Below are positions 7,721 to 22,589 of a DNA stretch of 32,000 nucleotides, piece by piece. The DNA lies in the NCBI GenBank assembly GCA_934613415.1, contig CAKTSY010000002.1, positions 406,709-438,708 on the forward strand. The letters run 5' to 3'. The notes below the pieces were generated by a model. The model was not told the DNA's origin. It worked only from the letters and a program-made list of their open reading frames with translations, and searched no databases. This stretch comes from an uncultured Opitutales bacterium (GTDB lineage Bacteria; Verrucomicrobiota; Verrucomicrobiia; Opitutales; Intestinicryptomonadaceae). The position numbers and the translations under genes were made by a program. Numbering within the stretch: position 1 is the first letter of the stretch; every line of letters starts with the position of its first letter.

Positions 7721-8287
7721 ATGGAGCTTAAGGAATTTTTAGATTATGTAAAACTGCAAAAACCGCTTAATACGTCCGAAATTTTTGCCTTTATGAACAA
7801 GGCAAGCGAAAGGGCGCGCAGCATTACTTTTAAGCTTAATTCGGCATACAAAACGCAAGGCGAAATTAGGGAAATTTTGTCGGAGTTGTTCGGGTATAAG
7901 GTAGAAGAAATCCTTAGGGTATTCCCTCCTTTTTACAGCGACTTTGGGCAAAATATAAAGATTGGCAAAAACGTTTTTATAAACGCGTGCTGCCAGTTTC
8001 AAGACCACGGCGGCATAAGCATTGGCGACGGCTGCCAAATTGGCCACAGCGTTGTTTTTGCAACGCTTAACCACGGCATTTTGCCCGAGCAAAGGCAATA
8101 TACAATTCCGGCTTTTATAACGCTTGGCAAAAATGTGTGGGTAGGCTCTAACAGCACAATTTTACAGGGCGTAAATATTGGCGACAACGCCATTGTGGCC
8201 GCAGGGGCAGTTGTTGTAAAAGACGTTCCAGCAAACACAATAGTTGGCGGCGTTCCTGCAAAAGAGATACGGAAAATCTGCCAATAG
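7721..8287 (+). CDS. Sugar O-acetyltransferase, Maa/LacA hexapeptide-repeat family
   Basis: 188 aa. N-terminal Mac-like region, then left-handed beta-helix hexapeptides ([59 protein letters not shown]). Confidence 0.85.
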
Positions 8288-8372
8288 TTTTTTTGCTTTT
8301 TACGAAACCTTTTTGTTTATTGGGTGTTTTATTGGGCATAAACCAATCCCAAAAAAATAAAAAGGTTTTTAT

Positions 8373-9344
8373 ATGAAGATGAAAAAATATGTATTGTTCG
8401 CGGTTGTTTCTGTCTTTGCATGCTGCGCTTTTGCAGGGCAAATCAACAAAGAGGCAAAGCAGTTTAAATATAGCACAACAATAGAAAAGGAGCGCCCGCA
8501 ACTAAACGAAGCCACAAAAAAGCTGATTGCGGCATATCGCAAAAACCCCACAAAGGAAAATTACAACGCGCTTAAAAAGCAGGTAGAGCTTAACTACGAC
8601 GCCGTTATTGCGCGCAAGCAGGCAAAGTTGCAGGAATTGAAAAAAACGGCAAAACATGCAAGCAAAATAGCCGAGATGGAGGAGATTGTAAGCGACGTTA
8701 TTAAAGACCGCCAAAACCGCATAGAGCAAAGTATGCGCCGTTTTACAGACCCCCGCTTAAGGCCTAACGCCCGCAGTGTAAGCGGCGGATTTTTGCCCGT
8801 GTTGGGCGCGGCGCAAAACGTTAACATTGCCTATACGCCCGTTACAAACGCGCAATTTGCAGAATTTGTAAAGGCGACAAACGCAAAAGCTCCAAAAGAT
8901 TGGCAAAACGGCGCAGTTGCTTCGGGTAAGGAAAATTTGCCCGTTGTAAACGTTTCGTACGAAACTGCGGTAAAATATTGCATCTGGCTTTCCGAAAAAG
9001 ACAAAGGCGCAACATACCGCTTGCCAACCGAAACGGAATGGGAATATGCCGCGGGCCACATGCCCAAAGACGCCGATTTTAACTGCGGCGTTCAAAAGTC
9101 GCTAAGCAATGTGTTTGCATACTCGAAAACGCTTTCGGCAAGCGGCGCAATAGATATGTGGGGCAACTGCTGGGAAATGACTTCTACTTGTGTAAGCAAA
9201 AACGGCAAAACGCAAATAAAGGTAAAAGGCGGCGCATTCGATTCGCCCAGAATGAGTTGCAGAACCGAATATAGAGACGAAACGCGCGATGCAAATTCGG
9301 CCTACGGCAATGTAGGGTTTAGGGTTGTGCGCCAAACCAAATAA
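8373..9344 (+). CDS. Secreted formylglycine-generating-enzyme (FGE/SUMF1) family protein with an N-terminal coiled-coil region
   Basis: Signal peptide present. The C-terminal half has TNAQFAEFV...PVVNVSYETAVKYCIWLS...YRLPTETEWEYAA...WGNCWEMT...GGAFDS...GNVGFRVV. Confidence 0.8.
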   Translation: MKMKKYVLFAVVSVFACCAFAGQINKEAKQFKYSTTIEKERPQLNEATKKLIAAYRKNPTKENYNALKKQVELNYDAVIARKQAKLQELKKTAKHASKIAEMEEIVSDVIKDRQNRIEQSMRRFTDPRLRPNARSVSGGFLPVLGAAQNVNIAYTPVTNAQFAEFVKATNAKAPKDWQNGAVASGKENLPVVNVSYETAVKYCIWLSEKDKGATYRLPTETEWEYAAGHMPKDADFNCGVQKSLSNVFAYSKTLSASGAIDMWGNCWEMTSTCVSKNGKTQIKVKGGAFDSPRMSCRTEYRDETRDANSAYGNVGFRVVRQTK

Positions 9345-9378
9345 GCTTATTACCCAAAAGCATTAAAAAACATTCAAA

Positions 9379-9408
9379 GCGTGCAAAGTTTATTTGCGCG
9401 CTTTTTTT
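9379..9408 (+). terminator. Rho-independent terminator after the FGE-family gene (overlaps the 3' end of convergent ogt)
   Basis: GCGTGCAAA (9379-9387) / TTTGCGCGC (9393-9401) with one G-U pair, followed by T7 (9402-9408). Confidence 0.6.
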
Positions 9409-9923
9409 GGCATTGTAAAGTGCGTTGTGTCTATATGCTCGGTTTTAAGCAGCTTTATTTTGTTTTCCAAGCCGCCGGCATAGCCCGTAAGGTTGCAGTT
9501 TGCACCCATCACCCTGTGGCAGGGAACTATAATAGAAATATTGTTTTTGCCGACCGCGTTGCCCACGGCCTGTGCCGACATCTTTTTTATGCCGCATTCC
9601 TTTGCGATTTCTTCGGCAAGGCGGCCGTATGTTGTTGTTTTTCCGTAGGGAATTTTCTGCAAAAGCTTCCAAACTTTTAGCTGAAACTGCGTGCCCGACA
9701 TCTTAATTGGAACCTTAAAATTCGGCTCTTTGCCCGAAAAGTAAATATCCAGCCATTTTTTTGAAAGGCTCAATATTTTCGAATTTTTTTCGGGAAGGCC
9801 TTTCAAATTGCAAGGGTAGTGTTTTTCGTCGGCAATCCAAAGCCCGCATAATGCACAGTCTTGGGCGGCTAAAAGCAGCTCGCCTAAAATGCAATCGTAC
9901 CTGCATAAAGAAATATTCAGCAT
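9390..9923 (-). CDS. ogt: Methylated-DNA--protein-cysteine methyltransferase (Ogt/MGMT)
   Basis: Active-site IVPCHRV, plus YGKTTTYGRLAEEI and GNAVGKN. I prefer the start at MLNISL (9923); the ORF-track start at 10010 is an alternative. Confidence 0.85.
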   Translation of the reverse strand: MLNISLCRYDCILGELLLAAQDCALCGLWIADEKHYPCNLKGLPEKNSKILSLSKKWLDIYFSGKEPNFKVPIKMSGTQFQLKVWKLLQKIPYGKTTTYGRLAEEIAKECGIKKMSAQAVGNAVGKNNISIIVPCHRVMGANCNLTGYAGGLENKIKLLKTEHIDTTHFTMPKKARK

Positions 9924-10171
9924 GCCCGAAATTTTTTTAATGGCAGGCACAATGGCAACAAAATTTTTATTTGTTGGTTTTACAAAAAATTTTTGTGTTA
10001 TTTCGCACAAACCCCAAACTTTTTAAGCTAAAAGCGAAAGTTTTTCGCAATTTTATGGATAGTTTTTTCCAAAAAAAAGCCACATGCAAAACTGCCAATA
10101 AAGCTGATAAATAGGCAGATTAATCGTTTTTTGTTGCAAATGGAAATTTTTAGCCCAAACTCTGGTCGTGT

Positions 10172-12550
10172 ATGAAAATATTTAAGCTTAAAAAAATGTT
10201 TGTTGCCGCAATTTTTGCGGTGCTTTGCATGGGGTGTTCCGATTTGCAAAAGGCGGATATTGCCGCCGAAAAAAAGGCGGTTGAGTCTGCATACCTATGC
10301 CCGCAAATGTACGAAACCGCAGATTTTGCCGAGTTTAAAGACGGCAAGATTTTTGCCACAAACGAAAAGTCGGCAAAAGAATACGACGTTATGTTTAAAA
10401 CAAAGCCCGTAAAATTTAAGCCGAACACGCACTATGTTTTTAATATGCTTTCCGACGTAAAATCGCTTAAGGGCAAAAGCCGTTTGCAGATTTTTATTTG
10501 GAAGATTGCGCCCAATAAAAAACCCGAATTGGTAATGGACATTTCGCAGCACGATAGCGACGGCGAATTTTTGCCGCGACGCGCCGAATTTTTTACGGGC
10601 GACGGCGACGCAAACTTTAAAATATCCTTTAACGCCGCGGGTAAAATTTCGGCAAAGGTTAAGGATATAGAAATTAAAGAGGGCAAAATAGAGACCTTTT
10701 ATGCCGCAACAAAAAACCCGAAGCCCTACAAGCTAAACCGCAAAACATTGCCTACGGGCGCAAGGGACTTTGTTGTCGATATGCCAAACAACCCGAAGGG
10801 CGCAACGGTTAACGCCGCCGATTTCGGCGTAAAAGCGGGCGAAAAAGATTTGATTACAAAACTGAACAATGCAATAGCCCACTGCAAAAAAATAGGGGCG
10901 GCAAAGCTTGTTTTAGACAGGGGCACCTATTATTTCGACGAGGAAAAGTCGGTTGAAATGAAGGGTATAAGCGACTTCGAATTCGACGGCGGCGGCTCTA
11001 CGTTTGTCTACTACAAAACAAACGGCAAAGTAAACAATATGAACATACAAAACTGCCAACGCATTAAAGTGCACAACTTTAATATGGATTGGGACTGGCA
11101 AAAGTCGCCGCTGGCAAGCATTGTAAAACTTGTTGCAATAAACGACAAAGGCAAAGACAAGTATGTGGATTTCGAATTTACCGAATACGACGACTTCCCA
11201 AAAAAAGACTGCAAAATAATAAATTTGTCGCTGTATAACGAAAAAACGCAGACGGTAGGCATGGAGGGGTCTTTCGACGTATATTACGATTTCGGCGTAG
11301 GCAACGAGGTTATAGTTCCGAAAAAGGAATGGCTAAAGGGCAATTTGCTTAGGCTGCATTTGCCCAAAATACATAAAAAATACAGGGTAGGCCAGTTCTT
11401 TAGAATGCAGCACTACTACTATACAATGGGCGGCATTCACATGAAAAACAACAGGCACCTTACGCTTGAGAATGTAAATATATGGTCGTGCTGCGGCTTT
11501 GCCTTGGCCGTTTACGACTACCAGCAGTATTGGCAGTTTAAAAACGTAAATATTGTAAAGCCCAAAAATGCCCATCGCAGAGCCATAACATGCACGGCAG
11601 ACCACTGCAACATAAGCAACACATTGGGCTTTTTTAAGATGGAAAACTGTGAAATTTCTTTCGGCGCCGACGACTGCATTAACTTTAACGACAAGTCGGC
11701 ATACGCCACCCGAAAAGACGACTACACTTTGCAGACCCGCGGCATGATGGGCTTTACAAAAAGCGCCTACAACAAGGGCGCAAATGTGGAACTAAGGCAC
11801 GACGATTTTTCGCCGGCAAACTATACGGGCAGGATTGTGGACAGAAAAGAAATAGACGCCAAAAAGGGCATATATTTGCTTTGCTTCGACAGAAAACTGC
11901 CAAAGGCGAAAAACACGGGCTTTGTTTTGTTCAACCGCAATTTCGGCACAAGGAATATGATTGTGCGCAACTGCTATTTCCACGACAACAGGGCAAGGGG
12001 CGTAATTATAGAGTGTAGCGACGTAACTTTGGAAAACTGCCGCTTTAAGCATAACGAGCACGGAGCCATGAAAATAGAGTCGGGCTACACAAACCACTTG
12101 TGGAGCGAGGGCTTTGGCGCAAACAACATAGTAATACGCAACTGCACTTTCGAAGACGGCTGCCCCGACGGCGTTGTAGACTACAAAAAGGCAAGGGATA
12201 TTTTTATAGGCTCGTATTCAAGGCGCAATTCGTTCCAATACCAAACAATGTACCCGATTGTAGACGGGCTTTTGTTCGAAAACAACACCTTTATAGACAC
12301 ATACGGTGTTATGGCAACGGTTTCGTCGGCGGGCAATGTTGTGTTTGCAAACAACACGTTTATTGCCAAAACGCCGCGCAAAAACGAAAAAGACTACAGG
12401 GGCTCTATCTTTGTGGCGTTTGCAAGCAATGTAAAGGTGGTAAACAACACTTGGGTGGAATCGCCTTTGGTGAAAACCCCCGGGGTGTTTGTAGACAAAG
12501 ACAAAGTTAAAGGCTTTGTTTTTGAGGGCAACAGGCTTGTAAAACCCTAG
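10172..12550 (+). CDS. Lipoprotein with right-handed parallel beta-helix (pectate-lyase fold); putative glycoside hydrolase or polysaccharide lyase
   Basis: Lipobox ...AVLCMGCSD. Segment VNAADFGVKAGEKDLITKLNNAIAHCKKIGAAKLVLDRGTYYF, followed by beta-helix repeats (NCYFHDNRARGVIIECSDVTLENCRFKHNEHGAMKIE, IVIRNCTFED, LLFENNTF, VVFANNTF). The exact family (for example GH110-like) cannot be set by eye. Confidence 0.7.
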   Translation: MKIFKLKKMFVAAIFAVLCMGCSDLQKADIAAEKKAVESAYLCPQMYETADFAEFKDGKIFATNEKSAKEYDVMFKTKPVKFKPNTHYVFNMLSDVKSLKGKSRLQIFIWKIAPNKKPELVMDISQHDSDGEFLPRRAEFFTGDGDANFKISFNAAGKISAKVKDIEIKEGKIETFYAATKNPKPYKLNRKTLPTGARDFVVDMPNNPKGATVNAADFGVKAGEKDLITKLNNAIAHCKKIGAAKLVLDRGTYYFDEEKSVEMKGISDFEFDGGGSTFVYYKTNGKVNNMNIQNCQRIKVHNFNMDWDWQKSPLASIVKLVAINDKGKDKYVDFEFTEYDDFPKKDCKIINLSLYNEKTQTVGMEGSFDVYYDFGVGNEVIVPKKEWLKGNLLRLHLPKIHKKYRVGQFFRMQHYYYTMGGIHMKNNRHLTLENVNIWSCCGFALAVYDYQQYWQFKNVNIVKPKNAHRRAITCTADHCNISNTLGFFKMENCEISFGADDCINFNDKSAYATRKDDYTLQTRGMMGFTKSAYNKGANVELRHDDFSPANYTGRIVDRKEIDAKKGIYLLCFDRKLPKAKNTGFVLFNRNFGTRNMIVRNCYFHDNRARGVIIECSDVTLENCRFKHNEHGAMKIESGYTNHLWSEGFGANNIVIRNCTFEDGCPDGVVDYKKARDIFIGSYSRRNSFQYQTMYPIVDGLLFENNTFIDTYGVMATVSSAGNVVFANNTFIAKTPRKNEKDYRGSIFVAFASNVKVVNNTWVESPLVKTPGVFVDKDKVKGFVFEGNRLVKP

Positions 12551-12576
12551 CATACAAAAGCGCAAAATACTATGCA

Positions 12577-12615
12577 AAGCGGCTCGGCCTTTAAAAGGGC
12601 AAAGCCGCTTTTTTG
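12577..12615 (+). terminator. Terminator hairpin between convergent genes
   Basis: AAAGCGGCT (12577-12585) / AGCCGCTTT (12603-12611), followed by a T-run to 12615. Confidence 0.55.
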
Positions 12616-12628
12616 CGTTTAGCTTGGG

Positions 12629-13147
12629 TTAGCCCATTGCTATGGTCAGCAAACTGTGGTAAAAATCGGCATACTCGCTTTCGCTTATTGGGCGTTGGGT
12701 GCTTAAAATTGCCATAGGGCACTTTGGCCCATTGCCGTAGCCTGGGTGGGCGTGCTTGTGCGGCGTTTCAAAAAAGCCGCAGCGTTTGTAAAAGCGCAGC
12801 CTTTTTGCCGAAATTTCGTCTACAACATAGTCTACTTCAAGCACAAAAATTTTGGGGCTGCCTGCCAAAACATCTTGCATAATTTTGCCGCCAATGCCGC
12901 AGTTTCGCATAGTGTCGTTTACTGCAAGGTGCTCTATATACACGCAGTTTTTAAAATCCCAAAACGACACAAACCCCAAAAGCGCGCGGTTTTGCGTATA
13001 GCAAAAAAGCGAAAATTTTTTGTCGGCTATTGCCTTTTGCAACTCGGCGTCTGTTCTTTGCTCGCAAATAGGGAAGCTTTTTTTGTAAAGCTCTAAAAAT
13101 TGCGGGTAAATTTGGTGCAGGGTGCTTTCTATCTTAATTTTTTGCAT
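12629..13147 (-). CDS. GNAT-family N-acetyltransferase
   Basis: 172 aa. Acetyl-CoA motif A: HLAVNDTMRNCGIGGKIMQDV (R-x-x-G-x-G). Confidence 0.8.
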   Translation of the reverse strand: MQKIKIESTLHQIYPQFLELYKKSFPICEQRTDAELQKAIADKKFSLFCYTQNRALLGFVSFWDFKNCVYIEHLAVNDTMRNCGIGGKIMQDVLAGSPKIFVLEVDYVVDEISAKRLRFYKRCGFFETPHKHAHPGYGNGPKCPMAILSTQRPISESEYADFYHSLLTIAMG

Positions 13148-13257
13148 GGAATGGAATATATATTCTTAATATCCGCAAAACTTGGTCAACAAGATTAAGC
13201 TAGTATGTTTGCCCAAAAAACCTTGCAAGAACTCGCATTTGCCCCTACGCTTTTTGC

Positions 13258-13926
13258 ATGAAAGCTATAATGTTTGCCTTGTCTTTTCTTGTGTATTTTT
13301 CGCTAAATGCCGCGCAATTTTTGGGGCAAAAGGGTGGCGAGTTTGAATTTTGCGAAACTTTAGAAATTGCCTATCCCGAAAATATGCCAGATTCCGAAAA
13401 GCCCGAATTTGCAAAAAAAGCCATAGCCCAAATAAATTCGCCTATTGTAAGGCAGCTTATTGTTTGGGCGGAAGGCGTAAAATGCGAAAGTTCAAAAAAT
13501 TTCACAAAAGATTACGGCAACTTGTCTGCCTGCGATATAATCGAAAAAAACTTTTCAATTTGCGTAGATAAAAAATTGCAAATCGCCACAGTGATTTTTC
13601 GCCACAAAAATAAGAACACCGCAAGTTTTATATGTTTTGACTTGGCAAGGGCTGCTGCTTTTCACTCAAAAAACGCATCTAACGAATGCCTAACAGCCCA
13701 GCTAGAGCTTACAAAAAAAGCCTACAAGCTTTTGGCAGAGCGCAAAAAACTTTTTAGCGAATTTAAACAGGCAAAGGCCGAAAACAATGCGCAAAAGGTT
13801 GCCGAGCTAGAAAAGAAATTGCGCCAAGAACCATTCTCGCGCGAAAAAACAAAACAAATAAAAGAACAATTTAAGACGTTTAAAAATGCGCCGCAATTTT
13901 GGCTGCTGCAAAATGCAAAGCCCTAG
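13258..13926 (+). CDS. Hypothetical secreted protein with a Lys/Glu-rich helical C-terminus
   Basis: Signal peptide MKAIMFALSFLVYFSLNAA. No family recognised. Its stop codon overlaps the stop of the convergent integrase fragment. Confidence 0.5.
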   Translation: MKAIMFALSFLVYFSLNAAQFLGQKGGEFEFCETLEIAYPENMPDSEKPEFAKKAIAQINSPIVRQLIVWAEGVKCESSKNFTKDYGNLSACDIIEKNFSICVDKKLQIATVIFRHKNKNTASFICFDLARAAAFHSKNASNECLTAQLELTKKAYKLLAERKKLFSEFKQAKAENNAQKVAELEKKLRQEPFSREKTKQIKEQFKTFKNAPQFWLLQNAKP

Positions 13927-14235
13927 TTAAAAAACTTTTCGGACTCAAAGCGCGAAATGTTGCGCATGTTAATGTAGCGACTGCATAAAAGCATTTGGTT
14001 GCTGTGCCCCATGTTTAGCTGTAGCCTTGGCAGGTCTTTAAAACGTTTGGCAAAAAAGCTGGCGTAGGTGTGGCGCAAAACGTCGGCCTGCCACGGCAAC
14101 GCTTTGCGGCTAAAACCGCTGTTTTGCCTTATGTTCTGCCAACGGCGTTCCCAGTTTTTCGGGCATATTTTGCCAAAACCTGTGCCACGCGTAAAAATCA
14201 CCCGCAAACCCTTTGTTTATCCCGTAATCTTCCAT
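13923..14235 (-). pseudogene. Tyrosine recombinase (phage integrase family), C-terminal fragment only
   Basis: ORF 13923-14207 reads ...CPKNWERRWQNIRQNSGF...WQADVLRHTYASFF...LNMGHSNQMLLCSRYINM, i.e. the catalytic box II region (LRHT / GHS / Y) only. A second frame, starting at an SD-preceded ATG at 14235-14233, overlaps it (MEDYGINKGFAGDFYAWHRFWQNMPEK...). About two thirds of a normal integrase is missing. Confidence 0.7.
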
Positions 14236-14305: not shown

Positions 14306-14341
14306 GGCAAAAAAAATTTCACACGGGTTCGTGTGAAATTT
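14306..14341 (-). terminator. Strong orphan terminator-like hairpin
   Basis: 12-bp perfect stem AAATTTCACACG (14314-14325) / CGTGTGAAATTT (14330-14341) with loop GGTT. The stem is followed by a T-run only on the minus strand (plus-strand A8, 14309-14316). No minus-strand gene lies upstream of it. Confidence 0.45.
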
Positions 14342-14539
14342 AAAACGCGGAGAGAGAGAGGGAATACACTGAAATTCACAAGTCGTTTATTACCAGCAAG
14401 CAAATTTTAACGGCAAGCGTCAGTTGCATTTAGTTGTTTCATTCTTATTTAAGTAATTGTTTAATGTAGTAAAAAAGAGTCTATAACTTGACGTTCAAAA
14501 AAAATCTGCTATTTTTGAGATTGCGATAAAGAAAGAGAG

Positions 14540-15493
14540 ATGGCATCTAAAGACCTAAATTTTCAGATAGAATTTTGCGCTGATTCAAAAGGATATTTTG
14601 ATAGAAAATGCCCTAAATGTGGATTGATTTTCGGAATAAAGTTAGCGGATTACAAATTACATAAAGGCAATATATTTTGCCCAATGTGTGGTTATTCGGA
14701 ATCTTACAATAATAAAATATGGTTTACAGATAGACAAATATCTGAGATGAATGATCGAATTCGCAAACAAGCTACAGAATGGATTCACGATCGATTTAAT
14801 GCTATTTTTAACAAATATCGGCATAATAGGAACGATATTATCAGTATATCGTATAAGCCAGAAAGACGTCCTATATTTAAAAATTATCCAATTTTACAAC
14901 CCAAAGAGTGGGATATAGAGATAAAATGTCAAAAATGCGGAAAGTCCTATAGTGTTATTGGGTCTGCTTTTTTCTGTCCGTTTTGTGGAGAAAACAATAT
15001 AGAAGATATCTTTGAAAAGTCACTTATTGTAATTCGCCATAAGTTAAATTTTGAAAAAATATTTTATCATGACCTAAATAATATGACAGGAAATGTCGCA
15101 ATTGATTTTTCCAGATCTATTTTGGAACATTGTATATCTGAAGTCGTTTCATGTTTTCAGAAATTTGCTGAAACAATATTAAAAAACTTCACTCAAGATC
15201 CTATACGTGTAAACGATTTTCAAATTATAAGAAGAGGGAATGAATTGTATGATAAATATACTGGGCATTCATATTTAGATTATATTTCCAAAGAAGAATT
15301 ACAATTTCTGGAGATTATGTTTAAACGTAGACACCTATTGGAACATAATATGGGAATTGTTGACGAAAAATATATGAATGGAGTCAATGATTTTTCGGTT
15401 AAAGTAGGGCAAAGACTTATTGTAAACAAACAAGAAGTATCAAGATTTATTGATATTATAGAAAAACTTGGATTGGGATTAAAAACTATATGA
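14540..15493 (+). CDS. Uncharacterised protein: two CxxC...CxxC zinc ribbons plus a helical C-terminal domain with an Rx4H (HEPN-like) motif
   Basis: 317 aa. Cysteines C24/C27/C47/C50 (CPKC...CPMC) and C130/C133/C146/C149 (CQKC...CPFC). The C-terminal ~165 aa are predicted helical, with FKRRHLLEHNMGIVDEKY (R264-x4-H269). A possible sigma70-like promoter is TTGACG (14488-14493), a 16-nt spacer, then TATTTT (14510-14515). Confidence 0.6.
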   Translation: MASKDLNFQIEFCADSKGYFDRKCPKCGLIFGIKLADYKLHKGNIFCPMCGYSESYNNKIWFTDRQISEMNDRIRKQATEWIHDRFNAIFNKYRHNRNDIISISYKPERRPIFKNYPILQPKEWDIEIKCQKCGKSYSVIGSAFFCPFCGENNIEDIFEKSLIVIRHKLNFEKIFYHDLNNMTGNVAIDFSRSILEHCISEVVSCFQKFAETILKNFTQDPIRVNDFQIIRRGNELYDKYTGHSYLDYISKEELQFLEIMFKRRHLLEHNMGIVDEKYMNGVNDFSVKVGQRLIVNKQEVSRFIDIIEKLGLGLKTI

Positions 15494-15620
15494 AGAGCAT
15501 ATAGCCAACTTTTTTACAAGTATAATTCCAGTCAATTTTATTAAAATAAAGAGAAGACTTGAAATATATCTTGTAAAGTTCTAATCTATTTAGGTTATGT
15601 AATATTGAAGGAGTTTGAGT

Positions 15621-16452
15621 ATGGCAAAAAAAGAACCAGTCGAATAGGTTAACATCACAACAAAAAGAAAATAAGGGTGTTATCGGTATTTTTGGAGATG
15701 AAGCAAAATCTCATGATAACTTAGTCAGTAGTGTATCAAGAATAGCCTTAAATAAGCTACAGAAGAAATATCCTACACTTTCTTTCCGCTACAGAACAAG
15801 CGTAAGTAAGTTGGAAATAAACAAAGCTTTACAAGAACTTGATAAGGATTTAGGGGGAACTTTGTTTGTACCAGATTCAAATATAAAACCCGACGGTGGA
15901 TTGATAGAAGTAAAAGACGATAATGGGTGTTGGCGAGTAGTTCTTGTTTCAGAGGCCAAACATCAAGGAAAAGATATAGAGAACATACAAAAAGGTATAA
16001 AAGTAGGGGTAAAAGATAACCAAGATTTTATGGTCGCAGGAAACGCGATAGAGCGTTCCCATAAGAATATATCTGAAATTGCTAATCTCATGCTTAAAGA
16101 AGCATATTTCCCTTATGTTCTCTTTTTGGAAGGTTCTAATTTTCTCACCGAAAATATTACCGTGAAAAGGCCAAATGGCGAAGAGTTGAAGATTATCTAT
16201 AATACAGGTTCTCTAAATAGATTAGATAGGCTCACATCCGCAAATTATGGAATGCCAATAAATAAGAATCTATGTAAAAACAAATTTGTAATATCAAATA
16301 ATCAAACTATTATGTTGCAAGCAGCTTCAATTTATACCGAAGGTAAAGGTGGACATTGGAATGAATCTAAAATGCTTCCAATTATGCTGGAAATAGCGGA
16401 AACTTCAATTAAGATGTTAGCCTCCGAATTGTTTAAACAACTCACAAAATAA
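15621..16452 (+). CDS. EcoRI/RsrI-family Type IIP restriction endonuclease; start codon out of frame with the body at an A7 run (as assembled)
   Basis: The body reads KPDGGLIEVKDDNGCWRVVLVSEAKHQGKD...MVAGNAIERSHKNISEIANLMLKEAYFPYVLFLEGSNFLTENI...LNRLDRLTSANYGMPINKNLC...IMLQAASIYT. It is colinear with R.EcoRI, including the PD...EAK motif and the AGNAIERSHKN recognition segment. Homology continues upstream of the ORF-track start, to codon 15622 (..QKKNQSNRLTSQQKENKGVIGIFGDEAKSH..YPTLSFRYR..). The ATG at 15621 has a GAAGGAG SD (15607-15613) but is one frame off. Confidence 0.85.
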
Positions 16453-16454
16453 AT

Positions 16455-17404
16455 ATGGCTATTCACAACAAGTCGCACAGTAATTCTGGTTTAATGGCAA
16501 TAAACCGAATGAATAAGAATAATATTAAGCATAAGTCTAGTGTTGATTTTAAATCTCCAGACCATACGAATTGTATTCTTCTCAACAAAGATTGTTTGGA
16601 ACTTCTAAGAACATTACCTAATGATTCTGTTCAATTGATATTGATTGACCCACCATATAATTTAGATTTGGCCGATTGGGATACTTATGACAACTATATG
16701 GAGTGGGCGTCGAAATGGATAAATGAATCTTATCGAGTTTTGTCAAAAAATGGAAGTATGGTTATTTTTGGAGGAACACAATTCCAAGATGATCGTAGAG
16801 GAGACTTAATTGAAATCATTTATTATTGTAGACATCATACGAAATGGCGTCTTGTAAATACGATTATTTGGTATTATAAAAATGGAATGTCCGCTCATAG
16901 ATATTTTGCAAATCGCCATGAAGAAATTGTTTGGTTCACAAAAACAGATAAGTATTACTTTGATTTAGATGCTGTTCGTCTAAAATATTCACCAAAAGAT
17001 TTGGAACTTGCATTGAAAGATAAACGATTAATCCCTGAAAATGTTATGAAGGGTAAGAATCCTACAAACGTATGGGAAATAGGGCGACTGAATGGTAATT
17101 CATTAGAACGAGTCGGCCATCCGACCCAAAAACCACTGGAGGTTATTAGAAGATTAATCAAAGCATTATCTTATCCCGATTCTGTTGTGTTAGATTTTTT
17201 TCAGGTAGCGGTACAACTGGTCGCGTATGTATCGAGGAAAAGCGAAACTGTATTATGTGTGATACCGATCCAGAATCTCAAAAATATTTTTGTAAACATA
17301 TTGAAAATATGAAAAAAACAAGTTTAGCAAATCCTTTTATTAGGGTAAATAATCTTGATGATTTCTTTTCTGATATAAAGAAACGTCAAGATTTTTATAA
17401 ATGA
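16455..17404 (+). CDS. Beta-class N6-adenine (or N4-cytosine) DNA methyltransferase, M.RsrI-like; frameshifted at a T7 run just before the SAM-binding motif (as assembled)
   Basis: SVQLILIDPPYNL (motif IV) comes first, then NRHEEIVWFTK and LERVGHPTQKP. At T7 (17195-17201) the ORF reads VLDFFQVAV... and stops at 17312. One extra T gives VLDFFSGSGTTGRVCIEEKRNCIMCDTDPES... (motif I FxGxG), ending at TGA 17402-17404. It starts 2 nt after the endonuclease stop. Confidence 0.85.
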
Positions 17405-17542
17405 TTAAATATGTTTTTAAAAGCATCGCCACTTTAAAATGTCCGAGACACTGTTGCAGGGCAGTTGCTGTTTTCGTGCCATTTGGTTTTATGTTGAACC
17501 CTGTTTTGCATATACTTATATTTTTGCGCGGGCGGATACAAG

Positions 17543-17620: not shown

Positions 17621-17870
17621 CGTAGGTGTGATGAGTTGTGGGTGTTGGCGGATGGGTTGAAATGGAGTTGGCGTAAAAGCGTCTATCTTGCGAAAAATTT
17701 TGGGTCAAAAATTATGGTTGGTGTGATTTAACGCTTGGTGTTAAAATTCTCGGTCGGTTGTGGTAGATTGGGTAAATTTGGTGGAAGCAAGCCGTTCTGT
17801 TGTCTGCTTGGGAACGCGGGAGTAGTTATTCAGATTTGATTCGGTTGTTGGTGTTGAAGATACTTTGACG
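17621..17870 (+). other. About 250-nt non-coding stretch with extreme G+T skew on the plus strand (C/A-rich and G-poor on the minus strand)
   Basis: Read directly: cytosines are rare on the plus strand. GGTGTK-type words recur: GGTGTGAT at about 17625 and 17720, TTGGTGTT at about 17735 and 17848, GGTGTTGG at about 17641. Confidence 0.5.
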
Positions 17871-18319: not shown

Positions 18320-20269
18320 ATGGAAAATAAAAAAGTCCGCGCTGTCGGATACGCCAGAGTAAGCACGAAAAACCAGCTAGTCGGCAGGGAATTTAACAGC
18401 ATTGACACGCAAAAGGCGATTATCGTCTACTATGCCCAAACCCATTCCGAAATCGAGCTTGTGCAAATATTCAGCGATCCTGGGCGGTCGGGTAAAAATA
18501 TGAAACGCCCCGGAATGCAGGCGATGATTGAACGCATCAAACAGGGCGATATTGATTGCGTTCTGGCATACAAGCTTGACCGCGTCAGCCGCGACGGCTT
18601 GGACTACCTAACACTTGAAAGCGAACTCAGGGGGTTGAACGTCTCTATTATATATACGAACGATGCCAATCCCGACGACACCCCGATGGGGCACATTCAA
18701 CGCCATATGATGGTAGGCTTTGCTCAATTTGAGCGGGAACAGAACGCCCAACGCGTGTGCGACAAGCATCTGGAACTTTTGAAACAAGGATATCACGCGG
18801 GCGGCTATCCTCCGCTGGGGTATAACTGCGGAGAGAAAAAGTGCACGCTTGTAATCGACCCACCAGCGGCGGCTCACGTCCACGAAATGTTCGCCTTGTG
18901 TGTGAAAGGTAAAACACCTGCCGAAATCGCCGCCATTATGCTGAAAAAATACGGAACAGTTCCCGAACACAAAACGCGAAACGGCAGAATCTACGGCGGG
19001 AACAGATATTGCGAAAACTTCGTTCGTAGGGTTTTGACAAATCCCGTCTACGCGGGCTACGTAAGCCGAAAGAAAACCGAACTTTTCGAGGGACTCCACG
19101 AAGCCATCATAAGCAGAGCGGATTGGGAGACCGCCTGCAAAGTGTTGGCTCCGAAACCACAAAAGTTGCGACCGCAAATTATGGCGTGTAATTCGCACAT
19201 TCTGAAAGGCAAACTGTTTTGCGGATGCGGGGCGGCGATGACCTGCGGCGCGTCGGGCAAGCGGCACAAAGACGGCAGCCTTTACCATTACTACATTTGC
19301 TCCGCAAAAAATCGGGAGCGAACCGCCCGAATGTGCAAAACGGGCATTGCCAAAAGCGTGTTGGAGTCGGTCGTGTTTTCGGCAATCGGCTACGCGGTAA
19401 CGAGGGGAATTTCGTTGAAGGAGATTCGCGAAAGCTCGCAAAAATACGAGAGCGAACTACTCAAAGAGCAGAAAGAACTTGCCAATTTAAAGCGCGACAA
19501 AGAACGAAAATTGCGCGAAAAGGTAAAGCTTTTTGGTGAAGTTGTGGGGAACGAAGTTCTGCGCAAGATGATGGCTGACGAGCTGCAAAAGCTTTCCGAA
19601 GAGGTTGAAAAACTTGCCGCACGACTCTCCGAAATTGCCAAGGAGACGGAGCTATTCAACCACGATACCGACTTGGGCGATCTTCAAACAAAGGCGGCGC
19701 TTGCCGATATGGATTCCGTCCAAAACGAATTAACTGCGGAGGAGAAAAAGGCGTTGGCACGAGGCGCCATTGAAAAGCTGACGTTAGCAGCGAAGACACA
19801 GAGCAAATACAAGCGCAAATTTTCGCTAAAAATCGTTCCAACGCGGGAATACCTGCCCCAACTTGGGGTTCTTGACATCGACTTTGAGGTAGATACTGCA
19901 AAAGGCCGCAGCGACTGGAAGATTGTCGCTCCGTTTGAAATCGCTTCCGAAAACTACGAGCAAAACCACAAGCCGCGCGAATATAAGCCGCAAAAACGGC
20001 ATTGGCTGCATACGGTTTTTGCTTGGCAGGCTAAGATTGAAAGAGGCGCAACAATGGCGGAAATTGCCGAACTTTCGGGTGTGAGTGTTCCGATGGTTTG
20101 CCGAAAATTGAAGCTTTTGGAACGGCTAAACGCCAAAGTGATTGAGAAAATCCTTTCAAGCAAGCTTGCCGAAACCAACGAGAGATTGTCGTTTAGAACC
20201 ATGGAAATGTTGTCAAAGCTGCCCAAAAGCGGACAGTTGTTGCGGTTTGCTGAGTTAATTCAAAAGTAG
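18320..20269 (+). CDS. Large serine recombinase (phage-integrase type) with an extra C-terminal HTH region
   Basis: AAGGAGG SD 7 nt upstream of the start. N-terminal resolvase catalytic motif VGYARVSTKNQ. Recombinase domain (GYPPLGYNCGEK...). Zinc ribbon (FCGCGAAM...YHYYICSAKNRERTARMC). Long coiled coil (ELLKEQKELANLKRDKERKLREKV...). Then 90 further residues containing ATMAEIAELSGVSVPMVCRKLKLLERLNAKVIEKI. Confidence 0.9.
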   Translation: MENKKVRAVGYARVSTKNQLVGREFNSIDTQKAIIVYYAQTHSEIELVQIFSDPGRSGKNMKRPGMQAMIERIKQGDIDCVLAYKLDRVSRDGLDYLTLESELRGLNVSIIYTNDANPDDTPMGHIQRHMMVGFAQFEREQNAQRVCDKHLELLKQGYHAGGYPPLGYNCGEKKCTLVIDPPAAAHVHEMFALCVKGKTPAEIAAIMLKKYGTVPEHKTRNGRIYGGNRYCENFVRRVLTNPVYAGYVSRKKTELFEGLHEAIISRADWETACKVLAPKPQKLRPQIMACNSHILKGKLFCGCGAAMTCGASGKRHKDGSLYHYYICSAKNRERTARMCKTGIAKSVLESVVFSAIGYAVTRGISLKEIRESSQKYESELLKEQKELANLKRDKERKLREKVKLFGEVVGNEVLRKMMADELQKLSEEVEKLAARLSEIAKETELFNHDTDLGDLQTKAALADMDSVQNELTAEEKKALARGAIEKLTLAAKTQSKYKRKFSLKIVPTREYLPQLGVLDIDFEVDTAKGRSDWKIVAPFEIASENYEQNHKPREYKPQKRHWLHTVFAWQAKIERGATMAEIAELSGVSVPMVCRKLKLLERLNAKVIEKILSSKLAETNERLSFRTMEMLSKLPKSGQLLRFAELIQK

Positions 20270-20336
20270 ACTTTCGGGCGGCGGGGTATTCCCTGCCGCA
20301 TGTTTTCCCTTTTATTAGAGATATACTTTAATTTTT

Positions 20337-20422
20337 TGCGTATTTACGCATAATTTTAAATTAAAAGCTTGATTTATCCCTAACATTGCCGTTTATTTTC
20401 TAAGAAATTGCGTAAATACGCA
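20337..20422. promoter_or_regulatory. Two copies of a 14-bp palindrome TGCGTA-WW-TACGCA upstream of the ATPase gene
   Basis: TGCGTATTTACGCA at 20337-20350 and TGCGTAAATACGCA at 20409-20422. Centres are 72 bp apart. The second copy ends 20 nt before the ATG at 20443. Confidence 0.45.
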
Positions 20423-20442
20423 GAAATTTAAAGTAGATAAAA

Positions 20443-21699
20443 ATGAATATAGCGCGCCCCATATATCTTCAAAAGCTTATCGACCGCAAACAAAACGGAA
20501 TGATTAAGGTTATCACCGGAATGCGACGTTGTGGAAAATCTTTCCTTTTATTCTCCATTTTTCGCGAGCATTTAAAGCAAAGTGGCGTTGACGACGACCA
20601 CATAATAGCCGTTGACCTTGAAGACCGACGGAATAAGGATTTTCGCAATCCCGATACGCTTTTGGATTTCATCGACAAAAAGATGTCTAAAGATGGAGTC
20701 TATTATATATTGATAGACGAAGTCCAGATGGCGGGGGAATTTGAAGACGTTTTAAACAGTCTTTTGAAAAGACCGAATGCCGATGTTTATGTGACGGGCA
20801 GCAATGCGAAATTTCTTTCGAAAGACGTGATTACTGAATTTAGGGGGCGCGGCGACGAAGTGCGTATTCGCCCGTTGTCATTCGCCGAGTTTCGTTCCGC
20901 CAATCCGCAAGCGGACAGAACCGCCGCGCTGACGGAATACATGGCTTACGGCGGCTTGCCGCAAACGGTTTCGATGAAATCGCCGTCGCAGAAAGAAGAC
21001 TACTTGAAAGACTTGTTTTTGCACACCTACCTTGTGGATATAAAGGAGCGATACCGAATCAGAAACGATGAGGACTTGGAGGAATTGGTTCGAGTTGTCG
21101 CGTCGTCAATCGGCGGACTGACGAACACAACCAAGCTGCAAAACACGTTCAATTCGGAAAAGAAAAGTAAGATTTCAAACGCCACGATAAAGAATTATCT
21201 TGATATGTTGCAAGACGCCTTTCTTGTCGAAAAGTCTACACGCTACGACATAAAAGGGCGCAAGTATATCGGCACGCAATCGAAATATTTCTTCGAAGAC
21301 TTGGGTGTCCGCAACGCAGTAATAAACTTTCGACAGTCGGAGGAATCGTACCTAATGGAAAATATGATTTACAACGAATTGCGTATGCGCGGATATTCGG
21401 TCGATGTCGGGCAAGTCACCGTAAATATAAAAGATTCAAGCGGAACAAGCAAACGGAAGTATTTTGAGGTCGATTTTGTCTGCAATTCTGGCTTCAAACG
21501 CTACTACATTCAATCGGCACTGGAATTGTCCACGAAAGATAAAATCGAGCAGGAGTTGCGTTCTCTGCAAAATATAAACGACAGCTTCCAAAAAATGGTG
21601 ATTGTCGGCGGAATTGCTCCGACATACCAAAACGAAAACGGCATTATAATTATGAACGTTTTCGATTTTCTTTTGGGCGATTCAAAACTTTTTGGATAA
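20443..21699 (+). CDS. AAA-type ATPase of the AAA_14 / DUF4143 architecture
   Basis: Walker A: ITGMRRCGKSFLL. Walker B: YYILIDEVQ. The C-terminal part is typical of DUF4143-containing ATP-binding proteins (...FFEDLGVRNAV...EVDFV). Confidence 0.8.
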   Translation: MNIARPIYLQKLIDRKQNGMIKVITGMRRCGKSFLLFSIFREHLKQSGVDDDHIIAVDLEDRRNKDFRNPDTLLDFIDKKMSKDGVYYILIDEVQMAGEFEDVLNSLLKRPNADVYVTGSNAKFLSKDVITEFRGRGDEVRIRPLSFAEFRSANPQADRTAALTEYMAYGGLPQTVSMKSPSQKEDYLKDLFLHTYLVDIKERYRIRNDEDLEELVRVVASSIGGLTNTTKLQNTFNSEKKSKISNATIKNYLDMLQDAFLVEKSTRYDIKGRKYIGTQSKYFFEDLGVRNAVINFRQSEESYLMENMIYNELRMRGYSVDVGQVTVNIKDSSGTSKRKYFEVDFVCNSGFKRYYIQSALELSTKDKIEQELRSLQNINDSFQKMVIVGGIAPTYQNENGIIIMNVFDFLLGDSKLFG

Positions 21700-21710
21700 A
21701 TCTCATTGTT

Positions 21711-22589
21711 CTAATAGTTTGTAATTAAGACCTCAATAGATGCGCCTTTATTTAGGTTTTTGGAATGATAATTTGAATTTTTATAATTTGATTTCATATA
21801 ATGAACATTATATGGGCGTTCTGACAGCCAATCTTTTAATATACAATTGCATATTCCCTTGTGTTCAAGAATATTAGACAACGCAAACTTAATATTTGAA
21901 TTGTTCAATGAATCCAATATTCGCAAAAGATTGTATTCTTCTGCTTTGCCCCATCCCGTAAACCCACGTTTCCCATCGTTATATGTTCCAGATGTAATTA
22001 GATACGGCGGATCGCAATATACAAAATCGTTTTTAGACAAAGATGAAAAGTTAAATTCATCAAAATTATTACATGTGAAATAGATATTAGATGAATAAAG
22101 TTTATTTAAAAAAGACTTTAAATTTTTGCTCATTGCAGGATTGAATGAACTTCTTTCTTTGCCAAACGGAGTATTAAATTCATGTTTAGAATTAAATCGA
22201 ATTTGGTGATTAAACGAAAATGCCAAAAGAACAAACAAGTCCAATGGTGACTTTGTTCTGTTGTATTCGGACCTCAAAGCTTTAAACCCTAATTCATTTT
22301 TGTCCGAAAGTTCAAATTCAGAGATACGATTTTTTATATAGTCAAATATAGCTGGGATTTTACTATTTTTAAATTCATTATACAATGCAATTAAAAAAAT
22401 TAAATTATCATTGCATAATATTGTTTTGGCATCTACATTTATCGCCACGTTAGCTCCCCCGACAAATAAATCAACAAAAGTATCGATATTTTTGGGAAAC
22501 AATGGCAGTATTTGGGGTAACAGTTTGTATTTCCCTCCTATATAATTCAAGGGAGATTTTAAATAATCGCTTGCTGGAAATAGAAACAT
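21711..22589 (-). CDS. Dam-family (alpha-class, D12) DNA N6-adenine methyltransferase; orphan
   Basis: SPLNYIGGKYKLLPQI, FVDLFVGGANV (motif I), then FVYCDPPY (motif IV). I prefer the ATG at 22589, which has a GGTGG upstream; the ORF-track GTG at 22601 is an alternative. No endonuclease gene is adjacent. AT-rich (21/60 G+C at 22201-22260). Confidence 0.85.
   Translation of the reverse strand: MFLFPASDYLKSPLNYIGGKYKLLPQILPLFPKNIDTFVDLFVGGANVAINVDAKTILCNDNLIFLIALYNEFKNSKIPAIFDYIKNRISEFELSDKNELGFKALRSEYNRTKSPLDLFVLLAFSFNHQIRFNSKHEFNTPFGKERSSFNPAMSKNLKSFLNKLYSSNIYFTCNNFDEFNFSSLSKNDFVYCDPPYLITSGTYNDGKRGFTGWGKAEEYNLLRILDSLNNSNIKFALSNILEHKGICNCILKDWLSERPYNVHYMKSNYKNSNYHSKNLNKGASIEVLITNY

Follow-up and report, generated by a model that had tools for sequence, protein, structure and literature searches.

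Genes for HEPN proteins embedded in restriction-modification (R-M) loci were predicted in 2013 to encode second-line suicide RNases, and a protein combining a zinc ribbon with a Swt1-like HEPN domain, Npun_R5629, was among the examples tabulated then (PMC3710099). Few R-M-embedded HEPN genes have been tested (PrrC, ApeA and HEC-08, with RAZR studied outside R-M loci), and each has a different trigger. Publications already cover the concept of the second-line HEPN RNase, as well as its close architectural analogues (PrrC, ApeA, RAZR/PD-T7-4, HEC-08), though not for the family described here. It is represented by a 317-residue protein encoded in the window, that is, the whole analysed stretch of 32,000 nucleotides. 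With about 1,600 clusters at 50% identity, as counted on the HEPN-like domain, the family is found in most bacterial phyla and beside every restriction type, and it has no database name.

RAZR (PD-T7-4), the ring-activated zinc-finger RNase, is a stand-alone abortive-infection gene widespread across phyla; its HEPN domain belongs to the Pfam family DUF4145, with the catalytic residues R146 and H154, and variability is highest in its zinc-finger domain (Zhang et al., Nature 2026, PMC13017515). The window protein shares with RAZR the arrangement of a Cys4 zinc ribbon at the N-terminus, a linker and, at the C-terminus, a divergent HEPN-like domain, all in one polypeptide, and the core formed by its second ribbon and this domain is close to RAZR in size and layout. 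The differences are that the window protein has two ribbons and a long helix, and that the ribbons are the most conserved part of its family (column entropy 1.00 and 1.47 bits vs 2.43 bits for the helix). DUF4145 yields no match to the window protein at E up to 0.1. It is also absent among the 25 most frequent of the 127 families seen in 42 members at E up to 1, and among all 22 families seen in 26 isolated C-terminal domains at E up to 10. No RAZR structure is among the 50 best structural matches to this domain.

PrrC of the EcoprrI type Ic R-M locus is a HEPN-type RNase encoded between hsdS and hsdR, and forms a second line of defence coupled to restriction. Relatives of the window gene occupy the same hsdS-hsdR slot, whereas the neighbour of the window gene itself is a type II pair. 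Moreover, PrrC occurs almost exclusively in type I loci, whereas the family considered here is also seen in type II, type III, DISARM-like and McrBC loci, and solo. At its N-terminus PrrC bears a regulatory ABC-ATPase domain, and it lacks zinc ribbons; the N-terminus of the window protein is a double zinc ribbon, and AAA_13, the ABC-ATPase family of PrrC and RloC, does not match it.

ApeA likewise consists of one HEPN protein, whose gene is frequently found inside R-M operons. ApeA causes abortive infection via tRNA cleavage, and this anticodon nuclease is activated by deoxydinucleotides, that is, by a conserved small ligand and not by a variable phage protein. However, ApeA has another HEPN family and another N-terminal domain, forms doughnut-shaped oligomers and lacks zinc ribbons, and no ApeA profile matches the window protein. 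HEC-08 (DUF3644 / EC042_2821 HEPN plus zinc fingers), discovered through guilt-by-embedding, is an experimentally validated single-gene defence system, in which defence is lost once the motif histidine is mutated (Payne et al. 2024 preprint). It too combines HEPN and zinc-ribbon-like domains in one gene, but in the reversed order, with the DUF3644 HEPN domain at the N-terminus and the zinc fingers at the C-terminus, and the HEPN family is different. The window protein matches neither DUF3644 nor the HEC models of PADLOC.

The only PADLOC model matching the window protein, with other Vassallo PD- models included in the search, is PDC-M14A, which aligns residues 5-152 to model positions 3-150 of 152 (E = 1.3e-17, 62.5 bits). 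PDC-M14 is a PADLOC candidate, a two-gene cassette FAM_02625>>FAM_00494 (preprint supplement), which was also discovered inside BREX, DISARM or type I R-M loci. Unlike in this cassette, the N-terminal module of the window protein is fused to a HEPN-like domain. The second component, PDC-M14B, does not match the C-terminal domain (no PADLOC match at E up to 10), and its gene is not adjacent, as the downstream genes are the EcoRI-like R and M. All 120 matches listed in the N-terminal profile search are full-length family members, with no stand-alone PDC-M14A-like protein among them.

HepT toxins of the MNT-HEPN (MntA-HepT) type are proteins of about 130 residues, neutralised through AMPylation by the partner minimal nucleotidyltransferase (MNT) antitoxin. 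The structures most similar to the C-terminal domain are theirs (7ae6, 7bxo, 5yep), and the Rx4H motif is common to both, but the sequence identity is 11-14% and the family has no accompanying MNT gene.

Gene and its surroundings

The gene occupies positions 14540-15493 of the plus strand, starts with ATG and encodes the 317-residue protein (P0001) with two four-cysteine ribbons, exactly as described in the original prediction. Identical copies of the protein are seen in seven independent metagenome contigs. Upstream there is an intergenic gap of 330 nt with a hairpin at 14314-14341; hence the gene needs a promoter of its own. A promoter-like site had been suggested, and the sequence is indeed there: TTGACG, a 16-nt spacer and TATTTT, with TG before the -10 hexamer, at 14488-14515 of the plus strand, ending 24 nt 5' of the ATG. 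However, it was identified by consensus match only, and such matches are not commoner in the window than in shuffled sequence (20 vs 16 +/- 3, no enrichment), so that the match is weak evidence of a real promoter.

The gene was also said to lie 128 nt upstream of an R-M operon. The position holds, although we count 127 nt between the stop codon, ending at 15493, and the start of the EcoRI-like gene, whose ATG is at 15621. The latter gene (15621-16452, plus strand), assigned to the EcoRI restriction endonuclease family, is 65% identical over 272 residues to what we take to be the EcoRI sequence. It is frameshifted at the start: the ATG is out of frame with the body, open from 15619, and shortening of the A7 tract at 15626-15632 to A6 would restore the frame. 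The N6/N4 DNA methyltransferase gene (16455-17404, plus strand), also identified by family match, has its frameshift within motif I, between DFF and SGSGTT, at a T7 tract (17195-17201), and the ORF as written stops at 17312. Sequencing error as the source of the frameshifts was rejected on the basis of the lengths of both tracts, which are the same in seven independent contigs; the frameshifts are fixed. Since both R and M are frameshifted, a role in assisting R-M, one of two initially proposed, is unlikely in this genome.

The GC content is 0.30-0.33 over 14501-17500, which is the minimum of the window, in agreement with the earlier placement of the gene in the most AT-rich DNA. Composition and flanking genes delineate an AT-rich (30-33% GC) three-gene cassette at 14350-17500, apparently acquired horizontally. 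On one flank there is a tyrosine-integrase fragment (13923-14207, minus strand), on the other, a serine recombinase gene (18320-20269). An imperfect inverted repeat of 18 nt (14403-14420 and 17731-17748) brackets the cassette, but this may be due to chance. A second dip in the GC content of the window (0.31) is at 21501-22500.

Family and conserved residues

The family of the window protein is large and hitherto unannotated. The first search produced 65 full-length relatives, the search with the N-terminal alignment profile yielded at least 957 clusters at 90% identity, and the one with the C-terminal profile, 1,586 clusters at 50% identity. The family is present in 315 of 185,579 species genomes from many phyla, one archaeon included. 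No model of Pfam, NCBIfam or PADLOC spans the whole protein, so the initial failure to recognise any named system stands, apart from the match of the N-terminal module to PDC-M14A. Current database labels of the relatives are "hypothetical", "UPF0148" and "ribosomal protein L37E". Two relatives carry the precomputed Pfam tag PF26408, but a search with the present Pfam version did not confirm it. In PHROGs only zinc knuckles matched, one of them Lar-like, and these were dismissed as generic CxxC matches.

Conservation of residues was scored on an alignment of 42 sequences, whose identity to the window protein is 29-82%. No substitutions occur in this alignment at the eight cysteines, at E196, R264, H265 and H269, or at N225, Q228, D275 and Y278. 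The dN/dS ratio is 0.10-0.19 in comparisons with four relatives. Since the motif is invariant family-wide and this ratio is low, we conclude that this is a real gene under purifying selection.

Zinc ribbon 1, seen in the alignment and in the AlphaFold model, comprises residues 13-56 (14576-14707, plus strand), with the cysteines C24-P-K-C27 and C47-P-M-C50. It has the lead-in DxxGYxDR with conserved D15, G18 and D21, and a mean column entropy of 1.47 bits. It is followed by a long helix (residues 64-96) and a linker (97-124), defined by the AlphaFold model and column entropy (together 14729-14911, plus strand). Of all segments of the protein, the helix varies most (2.43 bits), and the entropy of the linker is 2.04 bits; the model is of lower confidence around the linker (pLDDT 64-73 for residues 91-130). 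Zinc ribbon 2, delimited by the alignment and entropy, comprises residues 125-153 (14912-14998, plus strand), with C130-Q-K-C133 and C146-P-F-C149 and the pattern YSVIGSAFFCPxCGxN. It is the best-conserved segment (1.00 bit) and immediately precedes the HEPN-like domain. Variant proteins P0213 and P0220 have no ribbon 1 but retain ribbon 2 and the C-terminal domain. P0213, with a biotin-carboxylase N-terminus, is probably the product of a chimeric gene call; the extensions of all other longer variants contain no Pfam domains. The local search of the loci produced no significant proteins with just one of the two domains.

C-terminal domain

The C-terminal domain (residues 154-317, 14999-15490, plus strand) is all-helical in the AlphaFold models, with pLDDT of 87 for the full-length protein and 95.7 for the domain alone. 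In the models, helices 1 (154-181), 2 (184-215), 3 (251-269) and 4 (297-315) would form the four-helix bundle with an insert between helices 2 and 3 that is characteristic of the HEPN superfamily. Helix 2 holds the invariant E196 and Q207, and the insert (216-250) contains the invariant N225, F227 and Q228. The predicted catalytic motif R264-H265-L-L-E-H269 (15329-15346, plus strand), invariant in the 42 sequences, is at the end of helix 3; the codon of R264 is at 15329-15331 and that of H269 at 15344-15346. The surrounding segment FKRRHLLEHNMG (residues 261-272, 15320-15355) includes the range 15326-15349 initially assigned to the motif. Thus the helical domain with R264-x4-H269, as originally described, is recovered in the models, and both residues of the motif are invariant.

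According to PMC3710099, HEPN domains are defined by three features, namely a motif with which helix 3 ends, an acidic residue within helix 2, and an insert between these helices. Here R264-H265-x3-H269 is at the C-terminal end of the helix 251-269, as this rule prescribes, and the acidic residue is the invariant E196 in the helix 184-215. The original prediction had called the domain HEPN-like and suggested AlphaFold and Foldseek as a check. The best PDB matches in Foldseek, the top seven with the full-length model and the top nine with the domain model, all belong to the HEPN superfamily (HepT toxins, the HEPN domain of sacsin, AF_0298). The probability is up to 0.99, the TM-score about 0.5 and the rmsd 6-7 A; the E-values are weak, all at least 0.09, and non-significant alone. 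Among Pfam families, HEPN_RiboL-PSP is the only one below E = 0.01 on the isolated domains of 26 members, where it matches two, marginally (best E = 7.4e-4); no HEPN model of Pfam matches the window protein itself. The sequence-profile search of PDB produced no match for the C-terminal domain and generic zinc-ribbon matches only for the full-length protein. Our best reading is that the C-terminal 165 or so residues are a HEPN domain, albeit a divergent one. The analogy with all HEPN domains in which the Rx4-6H motif is intact predicts a metal-independent endoribonuclease, with an active site that would be composed from two paired copies.

Genomic neighbourhood

Restriction or defence genes are situated at most four genes away in 44 of 79 genomic loci and include type I, III or IIG R-M, DISARM-like, McrBC and GmrSD genes. 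Genes of the R-M type constitute 27% of genes at positions +/-1-2 vs 2.6% at +/-6-8 (p = 8e-16). The association with defence and R-M genes, initially suggested from one locus, is therefore seen in this census of relatives as well. In ten loci the gene is immediately between hsdS and hsdR, in six further loci it is between M/S and R with other genes interposed, and L088 and L101 are additional loci with the hsdS-hsdR placement. The type III order mod-[gene]-res is seen in three loci. In R-M loci the start and stop codons of the gene overlap codons of the neighbours. Relatives with 82-100% identity adjoin three unrelated type II systems.

On the other hand, 35 of the 79 loci have no recognisable defence neighbour, and the distant subfamily (less than 35% identity) seldom adjoins R-M genes (5 of 25 loci). 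None of 80 loci reveals a conserved partner gene, which agrees with the initial description of the gene as a single-gene effector, and the 35 loci with no defence neighbour have no conserved partner either. An adjacent MNT antitoxin gene is absent in the window and is not conserved among the 80 loci; we identified no inhibitor or antitoxin silencing the putative toxic RNase.

The family is also present on conjugative plasmids, beside PLD and P-loop NTPase genes. It is found in none of 50,697 phage genomes and on nine of 2.9 million viral contigs, several of which again have adjoining McrBC or type I genes; on these counts we rejected a phage-encoded (anti-defence) origin.

Proposed function and alternatives

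Since the gene recurs inside R-M operons, its most likely function is that of a back-up anti-phage "suicide" RNase. We assign a probability of roughly 0.6 to the gene being a stand-alone immunity effector, an HEPN RNase of the abortive-infection type. The protein would presumably be kept inactive in healthy cells. Upon phage infection the RNase would be switched on and cut cellular RNA (tRNA, rRNA or mRNA), so that translation would stop and the infection would be aborted. Zinc ribbon 2, which is joined to the HEPN-like domain, probably contributes to binding of the RNA substrate or of a conserved ligand, and zinc ribbon 1 with the variable long helix may be a regulatory or sensing module, found on its own, too, as the small PADLOC candidate protein PDC-M14A. 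The gene seems to move by horizontal transfer. Whatever the type of the restriction operon, it seems to prefer the downstream end, the commonest site being that between hsdS and hsdR, and there it would serve as a second line of defence. If validated, it would give annotation pipelines a common and compact (about 320 residues) defence gene, and would be a tractable case for how a partnerless toxic RNase stays silent. It could also reveal whether restriction is coupled mechanistically to RNA-level abortive infection or simply shares its location.

The control of such an RNase may be seen differently. The exact PrrC slot between hsdS and hsdR in 10-16 loci, together with overlapping stop and start codons that suggest co-translation, is what would be expected if the neighbouring restriction complex bound and silenced the protein, which would fire when a phage anti-restriction protein disabled the complex; this analogy was put forward for all R-M-linked HEPN clades (PMC3710099). 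We consider it unlikely for this family, as the neighbours are mechanistically unrelated (types I, II, III, IIG, DISARM-like, McrBC), near-identical copies adjoin three different type II enzymes, and 35 of the 79 loci have no R-M neighbour. Moreover, in the window the gene is intact while R and M are both frameshifted, and the protein lacks the ABC ATPase domain of PrrC. Alternatively, the zinc-ribbon module might recognise a phage structural or recombination protein, assembly on which would activate the RNase, as in RAZR/PD-T7-4, a single-gene abortive system with the same domain order. This is improbable, given that the zinc-finger domain of RAZR is its most variable part, whereas the ribbons here are the most conserved (1.0-1.5 bits vs 2.4), and that the protein has no DUF4145 match, no PADLOC match besides PDC-M14A and no RAZR structure among the top 50 fold matches.

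Two other explanations dispense with the RNase. Zinc ribbons commonly bind nucleic acid, and the gene is co-transcribed inside R-M operons. Hence the protein might be a non-catalytic accessory factor tuning the expression or assembly of R-M or restriction alleviation, with the helical domain as a scaffold, and weak, sub-threshold Lar-like matches point the same way. However, these matches are confined to generic CxxC knuckles, the invariant R-H-x3-H with a glutamate resembles an active site rather than a scaffold, and the gene occurs in 35 loci with no R-M and on plasmids beside other genes, all of which makes a regulator very unlikely. It is also highly improbable that the Rx4H is coincidental and that the C-terminal domain, as a four-helix bundle, has some other chemistry (e.g. 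DNA cleavage or nucleotide modification), or mere binding. Helical bundles are prone to spurious structural matches, all E-values of the fold search are 0.09 or above, the rmsd is high, and there is no significant sequence match to any solved structure. On the other side are the exclusively HEPN top matches obtained with two models, the positions of the motif and of the acidic residue in helix 2, which fit the family definition (PMC3710099), the independent weak sequence match to HEPN_RiboL-PSP, and a genomic context typical of HEPN defence genes.

Returning to the abortive-infection RNase, a rather unlikely version of its trigger is that the double-zinc-ribbon module senses a generic by-product of DNA restriction or phage-induced DNA breakdown. 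The protein would then be a universal plug-in through which any restriction system (type I, II, III or IIG, DISARM, McrBC), on cleaving DNA, would cause translational shutdown. Such sensing would explain why the gene follows so many unrelated restriction operons, why the ribbons are conserved and not fast-evolving, and why the same module is seen as a separate protein, PDC-M14A, beside a different partner. Candidate by-products are DNA ends, fragments or short deoxynucleotides, cf. the deoxydinucleotides sensed by ApeA.

The gene and the domain structure of its product

The gene at 14540–15493 (+) starts with ATG and encodes a protein of 317 aa with the Cys4 knuckle pairs C24/C27/C47/C50 and C130/C133/C146/C149. 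Residues 261–272, FKRRHLLEHNMG, contain R264-x4-H269. The window is most AT-rich around this gene, the GC content being 0.30–0.33 across 14501–17500. All these features had been proposed from the DNA alone and are confirmed, the eight cysteines being invariant in an alignment of 42 sequences. The proposal that the gene has its own promoter fares less well: TTGACG-16-TATTTT is present at 14488–14515, but the window has no excess of such matches over shuffled sequence, and hence it is only a plausible promoter.

The only features that Pfam and NCBIfam identify are generic zinc ribbons, the C-terminal half having no match. In PADLOC, aa 5–152 match the entire candidate model PDC-M14A (E = 1.3e-17), and the C-terminal domain has no match. 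AlphaFold gives confident models, with pLDDT 87 over the whole protein and 95.7 when the C-terminal domain is modelled by itself. The protein features ribbon 1 (about aa 19–55), a long helix (aa 64–96), a linker of lower confidence, and ribbon 2 (aa 126–150), the latter continuing directly into a helical domain with helices 154–181, 184–215, 251–269 and 297–315 and a short-helix insert at aa 216–250.

When the models were compared with the PDB by Foldseek, HEPN proteins took the top seven positions for the full-length model and the top nine for the domain model, with probability up to 0.99 and TM-score about 0.5, though with E of only 0.09–0.5. Among them are HepT toxins (7ae6, 7bxo, 7ae2, 7ae9, 6m6u, 5yep), the sacsin HEPN domain (3o10) and AF_0298 (2hsb); HI0074 and Csm6 are lower in the list. 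HEPN domains are described as having an Rx4-6H motif where helix 3 ends and passes into the loop before helix 4, an acidic residue conserved in helix 2, and an insert of variable form that separates helices 2 and 3 (PMC3710099). All three are seen here, as R264-H265-x3-H269, E196 and residues 216–250, respectively. In a Pfam scan of 26 isolated C-terminal domains at a permissive threshold, the only family with E < 0.01 was HEPN_RiboL-PSP, found in two domains (best E = 7.4e-4). The best assignment of the C-terminal domain, resting on the modelled fold and motif geometry and not on significant sequence similarity, is a divergent HEPN domain, as originally predicted.

The family and its conservation

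The first search with the window protein yielded 65 clusters matching over almost the full length. A profile of the N-terminal half retrieved 957 clusters at 90% identity, the best 120 of which all have the same architecture of about 320–340 aa, and a profile of the C-terminal domain retrieved 1,586 clusters at 50% identity, 185 of them with E < 1e-30. Relatives are present in 315 of 185,579 species-representative genomes, from the Bacillota, Bacteroidota, Pseudomonadota, Verrucomicrobiota, Spirochaetota, Chloroflexota, Acidobacteriota and Melainabacteria to one ANME-1 archaeon, a patchy scatter typical of horizontally transferred accessory genes. In the source databases they are labelled "hypothetical" or misnamed "UPF0148 zinc finger" and "ribosomal protein L37E". 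By these searches, the family is real, large and without annotation.

In the 42 aligned sequences (29–82% identical to the window protein), the invariant positions besides the cysteines are G18, D21, T63 and Q66 in the N-terminal part and E196, Q207, N225, F227, Q228, G233, Y245, F261, R264, H265, H269, G272, D275 and Y278 in the C-terminal domain. Conservation, measured as per-segment entropy, is strongest in ribbon 2 (1.00 bit) and around the motif, next strongest in ribbon 1 (1.47 bits), and weakest in the long helix (2.43), the linker, and HEPN helices 1 and 4. The dN/dS ratio of the window gene against four relatives is 0.10–0.19.

Two variant members, P0213 and P0220, have only ribbon 2 and the HEPN domain, behind unrelated N-termini. 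Since they retain only these parts, we regard ribbon 2 plus HEPN as the putative effector core, and ribbon 1 plus the helix, the part that also exists as PDC-M14A, as a separable regulatory or sensor module. P0213 (449 aa), whose N-terminus is that of a biotin carboxylase, probably represents a chimeric gene call. In P0220 (495 aa), the different N-terminus contains a "DGRHR" stretch resembling, by eye, what we take to be a ParB-type motif. Three other members (P0228, P0263, P0299) are extended at the C-terminus by about 200 aa in which Pfam has no match.

Genomic context

In 80 loci we predicted ORFs, grouped the neighbouring genes into clusters, annotated cluster representatives with Pfam, and then applied iterative HMM searches; the counts refer to the 79 loci other than the window. 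The gene is directly inserted between hsdS and hsdR in ten loci, lies between hsdM/S and hsdR together with other genes (e.g. GmrSD) in six, and adjoins a type I system from outside in eleven. In three loci it separates type III mod and res, and in five it adjoins type III or helicase genes. Four loci have an adjoining type IIG enzyme or N6-methyltransferase; in three the gene is 3' of a DISARM-like set (helicase, MZB, PLD), and McrBC and a WYL regulator often come next; McrBC and GmrSD adjoin it in one locus each. The remaining 35 have none of these contexts.

In the R-M loci the gene has the same orientation as its neighbours, with median gaps of 11 and 15 nt and often with overlapping start and stop codons. 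As an internal control, we compared positions ±1–2 with ±6–8 of the same loci: R-M-type genes constitute 27% and 2.6%, respectively (odds ratio 13.6, p = 8e-16), the enrichment being skewed toward the upstream side. The expected association with defence genes is thus borne out, in 44 of 79 loci. So is the suggestion of a stand-alone gene, as the 35 other loci have no recurring neighbour family, the neighbours being HTH regulators, conjugation genes, AAA_13, Schlafen, HNH, one RtcB and some housekeeping genes. The type of system changes even between close relatives: the window protein adjoins an EcoRI-like type II pair, P0003 (87% identity to it) a MjaI-like pair, P0002 (82%) a NspV-like pair, whereas P0006 (69%) and P0008 (52%) occupy the hsdS–hsdR slot of type I systems. 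Since the R-M contexts are so varied and no neighbour recurs elsewhere, the family has no obligate partner, while showing a strong, type-independent affinity for restriction operons.

The gene occurs on 14 of 72,556 annotated plasmids, mostly conjugative, where it is 3' of a PLD-like or P-loop NTPase gene and labelled "hypothetical". None of 50,697 phage genomes contains it, and only nine of 2.9 million viral contigs do, several again with adjoining McrBC or type I genes.

Some loci deserve separate mention. L012, L014 and L033 (around 8000–14000) share a super-operon of three defence modules in one orientation: DISARM-like helicase, MZB (DUF1998) protein, PLD, the zinc-ribbon/HEPN gene, EVE-domain McrB, McrC and WYL/WCX regulator. 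In L054, L055, L057 and L065 (around 8940–9880), Bacteroidota conjugative elements with relaxase and T4CP upstream, the next gene after the family member always encodes the same 312-aa protein without Pfam match, which may be a lineage-specific partner. In one deltaproteobacterial locus (L067, 9029–10204) the family member is directly followed by another, divergent paralogue of 391 aa (25% identity, E = 3.5e-19), so that the two stand in tandem.

Known systems and possible mechanism

As early as 2013, a role as a second line of defence was proposed for R-M-linked HEPN RNases of at least 16 clades (PMC3710099); the "Zinc Ribbon (Npun_R5629)" fusion in the Abi2/Swt1 clade of that study may be the same family. 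Characterised examples are PrrC, ApeA, HEC-08 and RAZR. Unlike PrrC, the window protein has no ABC ATPase; it has no match to DUF4145 of RAZR, DUF3644 of HEC-08 or HEPN_Apea of ApeA, and its gene lacks the MNT partner of MNT-HEPN (HepT) systems. HEC-08 combines the two domain types in the opposite order, and its motif-histidine mutant loses defence. With PDC-M14, a two-gene "phage defence candidate" (FAM_02625>>FAM_00494) of predicted function that "guilt-by-embedding" had picked out from BREX, DISARM and type I R-M loci (10.1101/2024.01.29.577857), only the N-terminal module is shared. As the defining features of the named families are absent, we consider this a separate variant, and the original failure to recognise a named system stands. 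What is new is an unnamed, abundant family of double-zinc-ribbon HEPN proteins; the concept of HEPN proteins riding on R-M systems is not.

From the invariant catalytic-type residues and every characterised precedent we infer that the protein is most likely a metal-independent HEPN endoRNase, which would be silent before infection and upon infection would halt translation, causing abortive infection. We put the probability that the window protein is a stand-alone defence RNase of the HEPN type at about 0.6; the original prediction is supported with this and the other qualifications. As for the trigger, RAZR (PD-T7-4) binds rings of phage portal or recombinase protein through its hypervariable zinc-finger domain (PMC13017515). 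Similar sensing of a variable phage protein fits less well here, because the ribbons of the family are conserved, the opposite of the RAZR pattern; a ligand that is itself conserved would fit better, as with the deoxydinucleotides that ApeA senses. Neither the variety of neighbouring systems nor the existence of solo copies sits easily with a strict guardian of the PrrC kind, kept silent by association with its R-M complex, and such a guardian is a poor fit to this window. The defence RNase is a solid and testable candidate that fits an established pattern and does not overturn one.

The R-M pair and the surrounding island

The gene was predicted to lie directly upstream of an R-M operon. The position holds, as its stop codon is followed after 127 nt by the ATG of an EcoRI-family gene (15621–16452) and then by an N6/N4 methyltransferase gene (16455–17404), but both are frameshifted. 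The EcoRI-like frame, 65% identical over 272 aa to what we take to be the EcoRI sequence, is open from 15619, and its sole ATG (15621) is out of frame with the otherwise intact body. The break is caused by the A7 tract 15626–15632 (region 15616–15640); with A6 it would read MAKKNQSNRL... In the methyltransferase the frame shifts at the T7 tract 17195–17201, within catalytic motif I (DFF|SGSGTT), and one added T would mend it. Hence both halves of the pair are disrupted at homopolymer tracts, and the zinc-ribbon/HEPN gene is intact. Since seven independent metagenome contigs are identical in both tracts and across the entire 3.6 kb, assembly error is ruled out and the frameshifts are fixed mutations or a stable phase-off state. 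For the EcoRI-like gene, the options are fixed inactivation, a stable phase-off state, or slippage-dependent expression.

Together with the zinc-ribbon/HEPN gene, the R-M pair makes up an AT-rich cassette that has a tyrosine-integrase fragment on one side and a serine recombinase gene on the other. The integrase fragment, an ORF of 94 aa at 13923–14207 (−), matches only the C-terminal part of a tyrosine (phage-type) integrase and is apparently a remnant adjoining the insertion point. An 18-nt inverted repeat (14403–14420 and 17731–17748, 89% complementary) flanks the cassette, coinciding almost exactly with its compositional boundaries, and could represent the ends of a mobile cassette or be due to chance. 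The serine recombinase (649 aa) opens the region 18320–22601. It is followed on the 3' side by an AAA_14/DUF4143 ATPase matching the PADLOC candidate PDC-S01 (E = 1.5e-118) and then, on the opposite strand and in a second AT-rich dip, by a Dam-type (D12 class) methyltransferase, for which no endonuclease partner was found. This region is a composite mobile and defence island.
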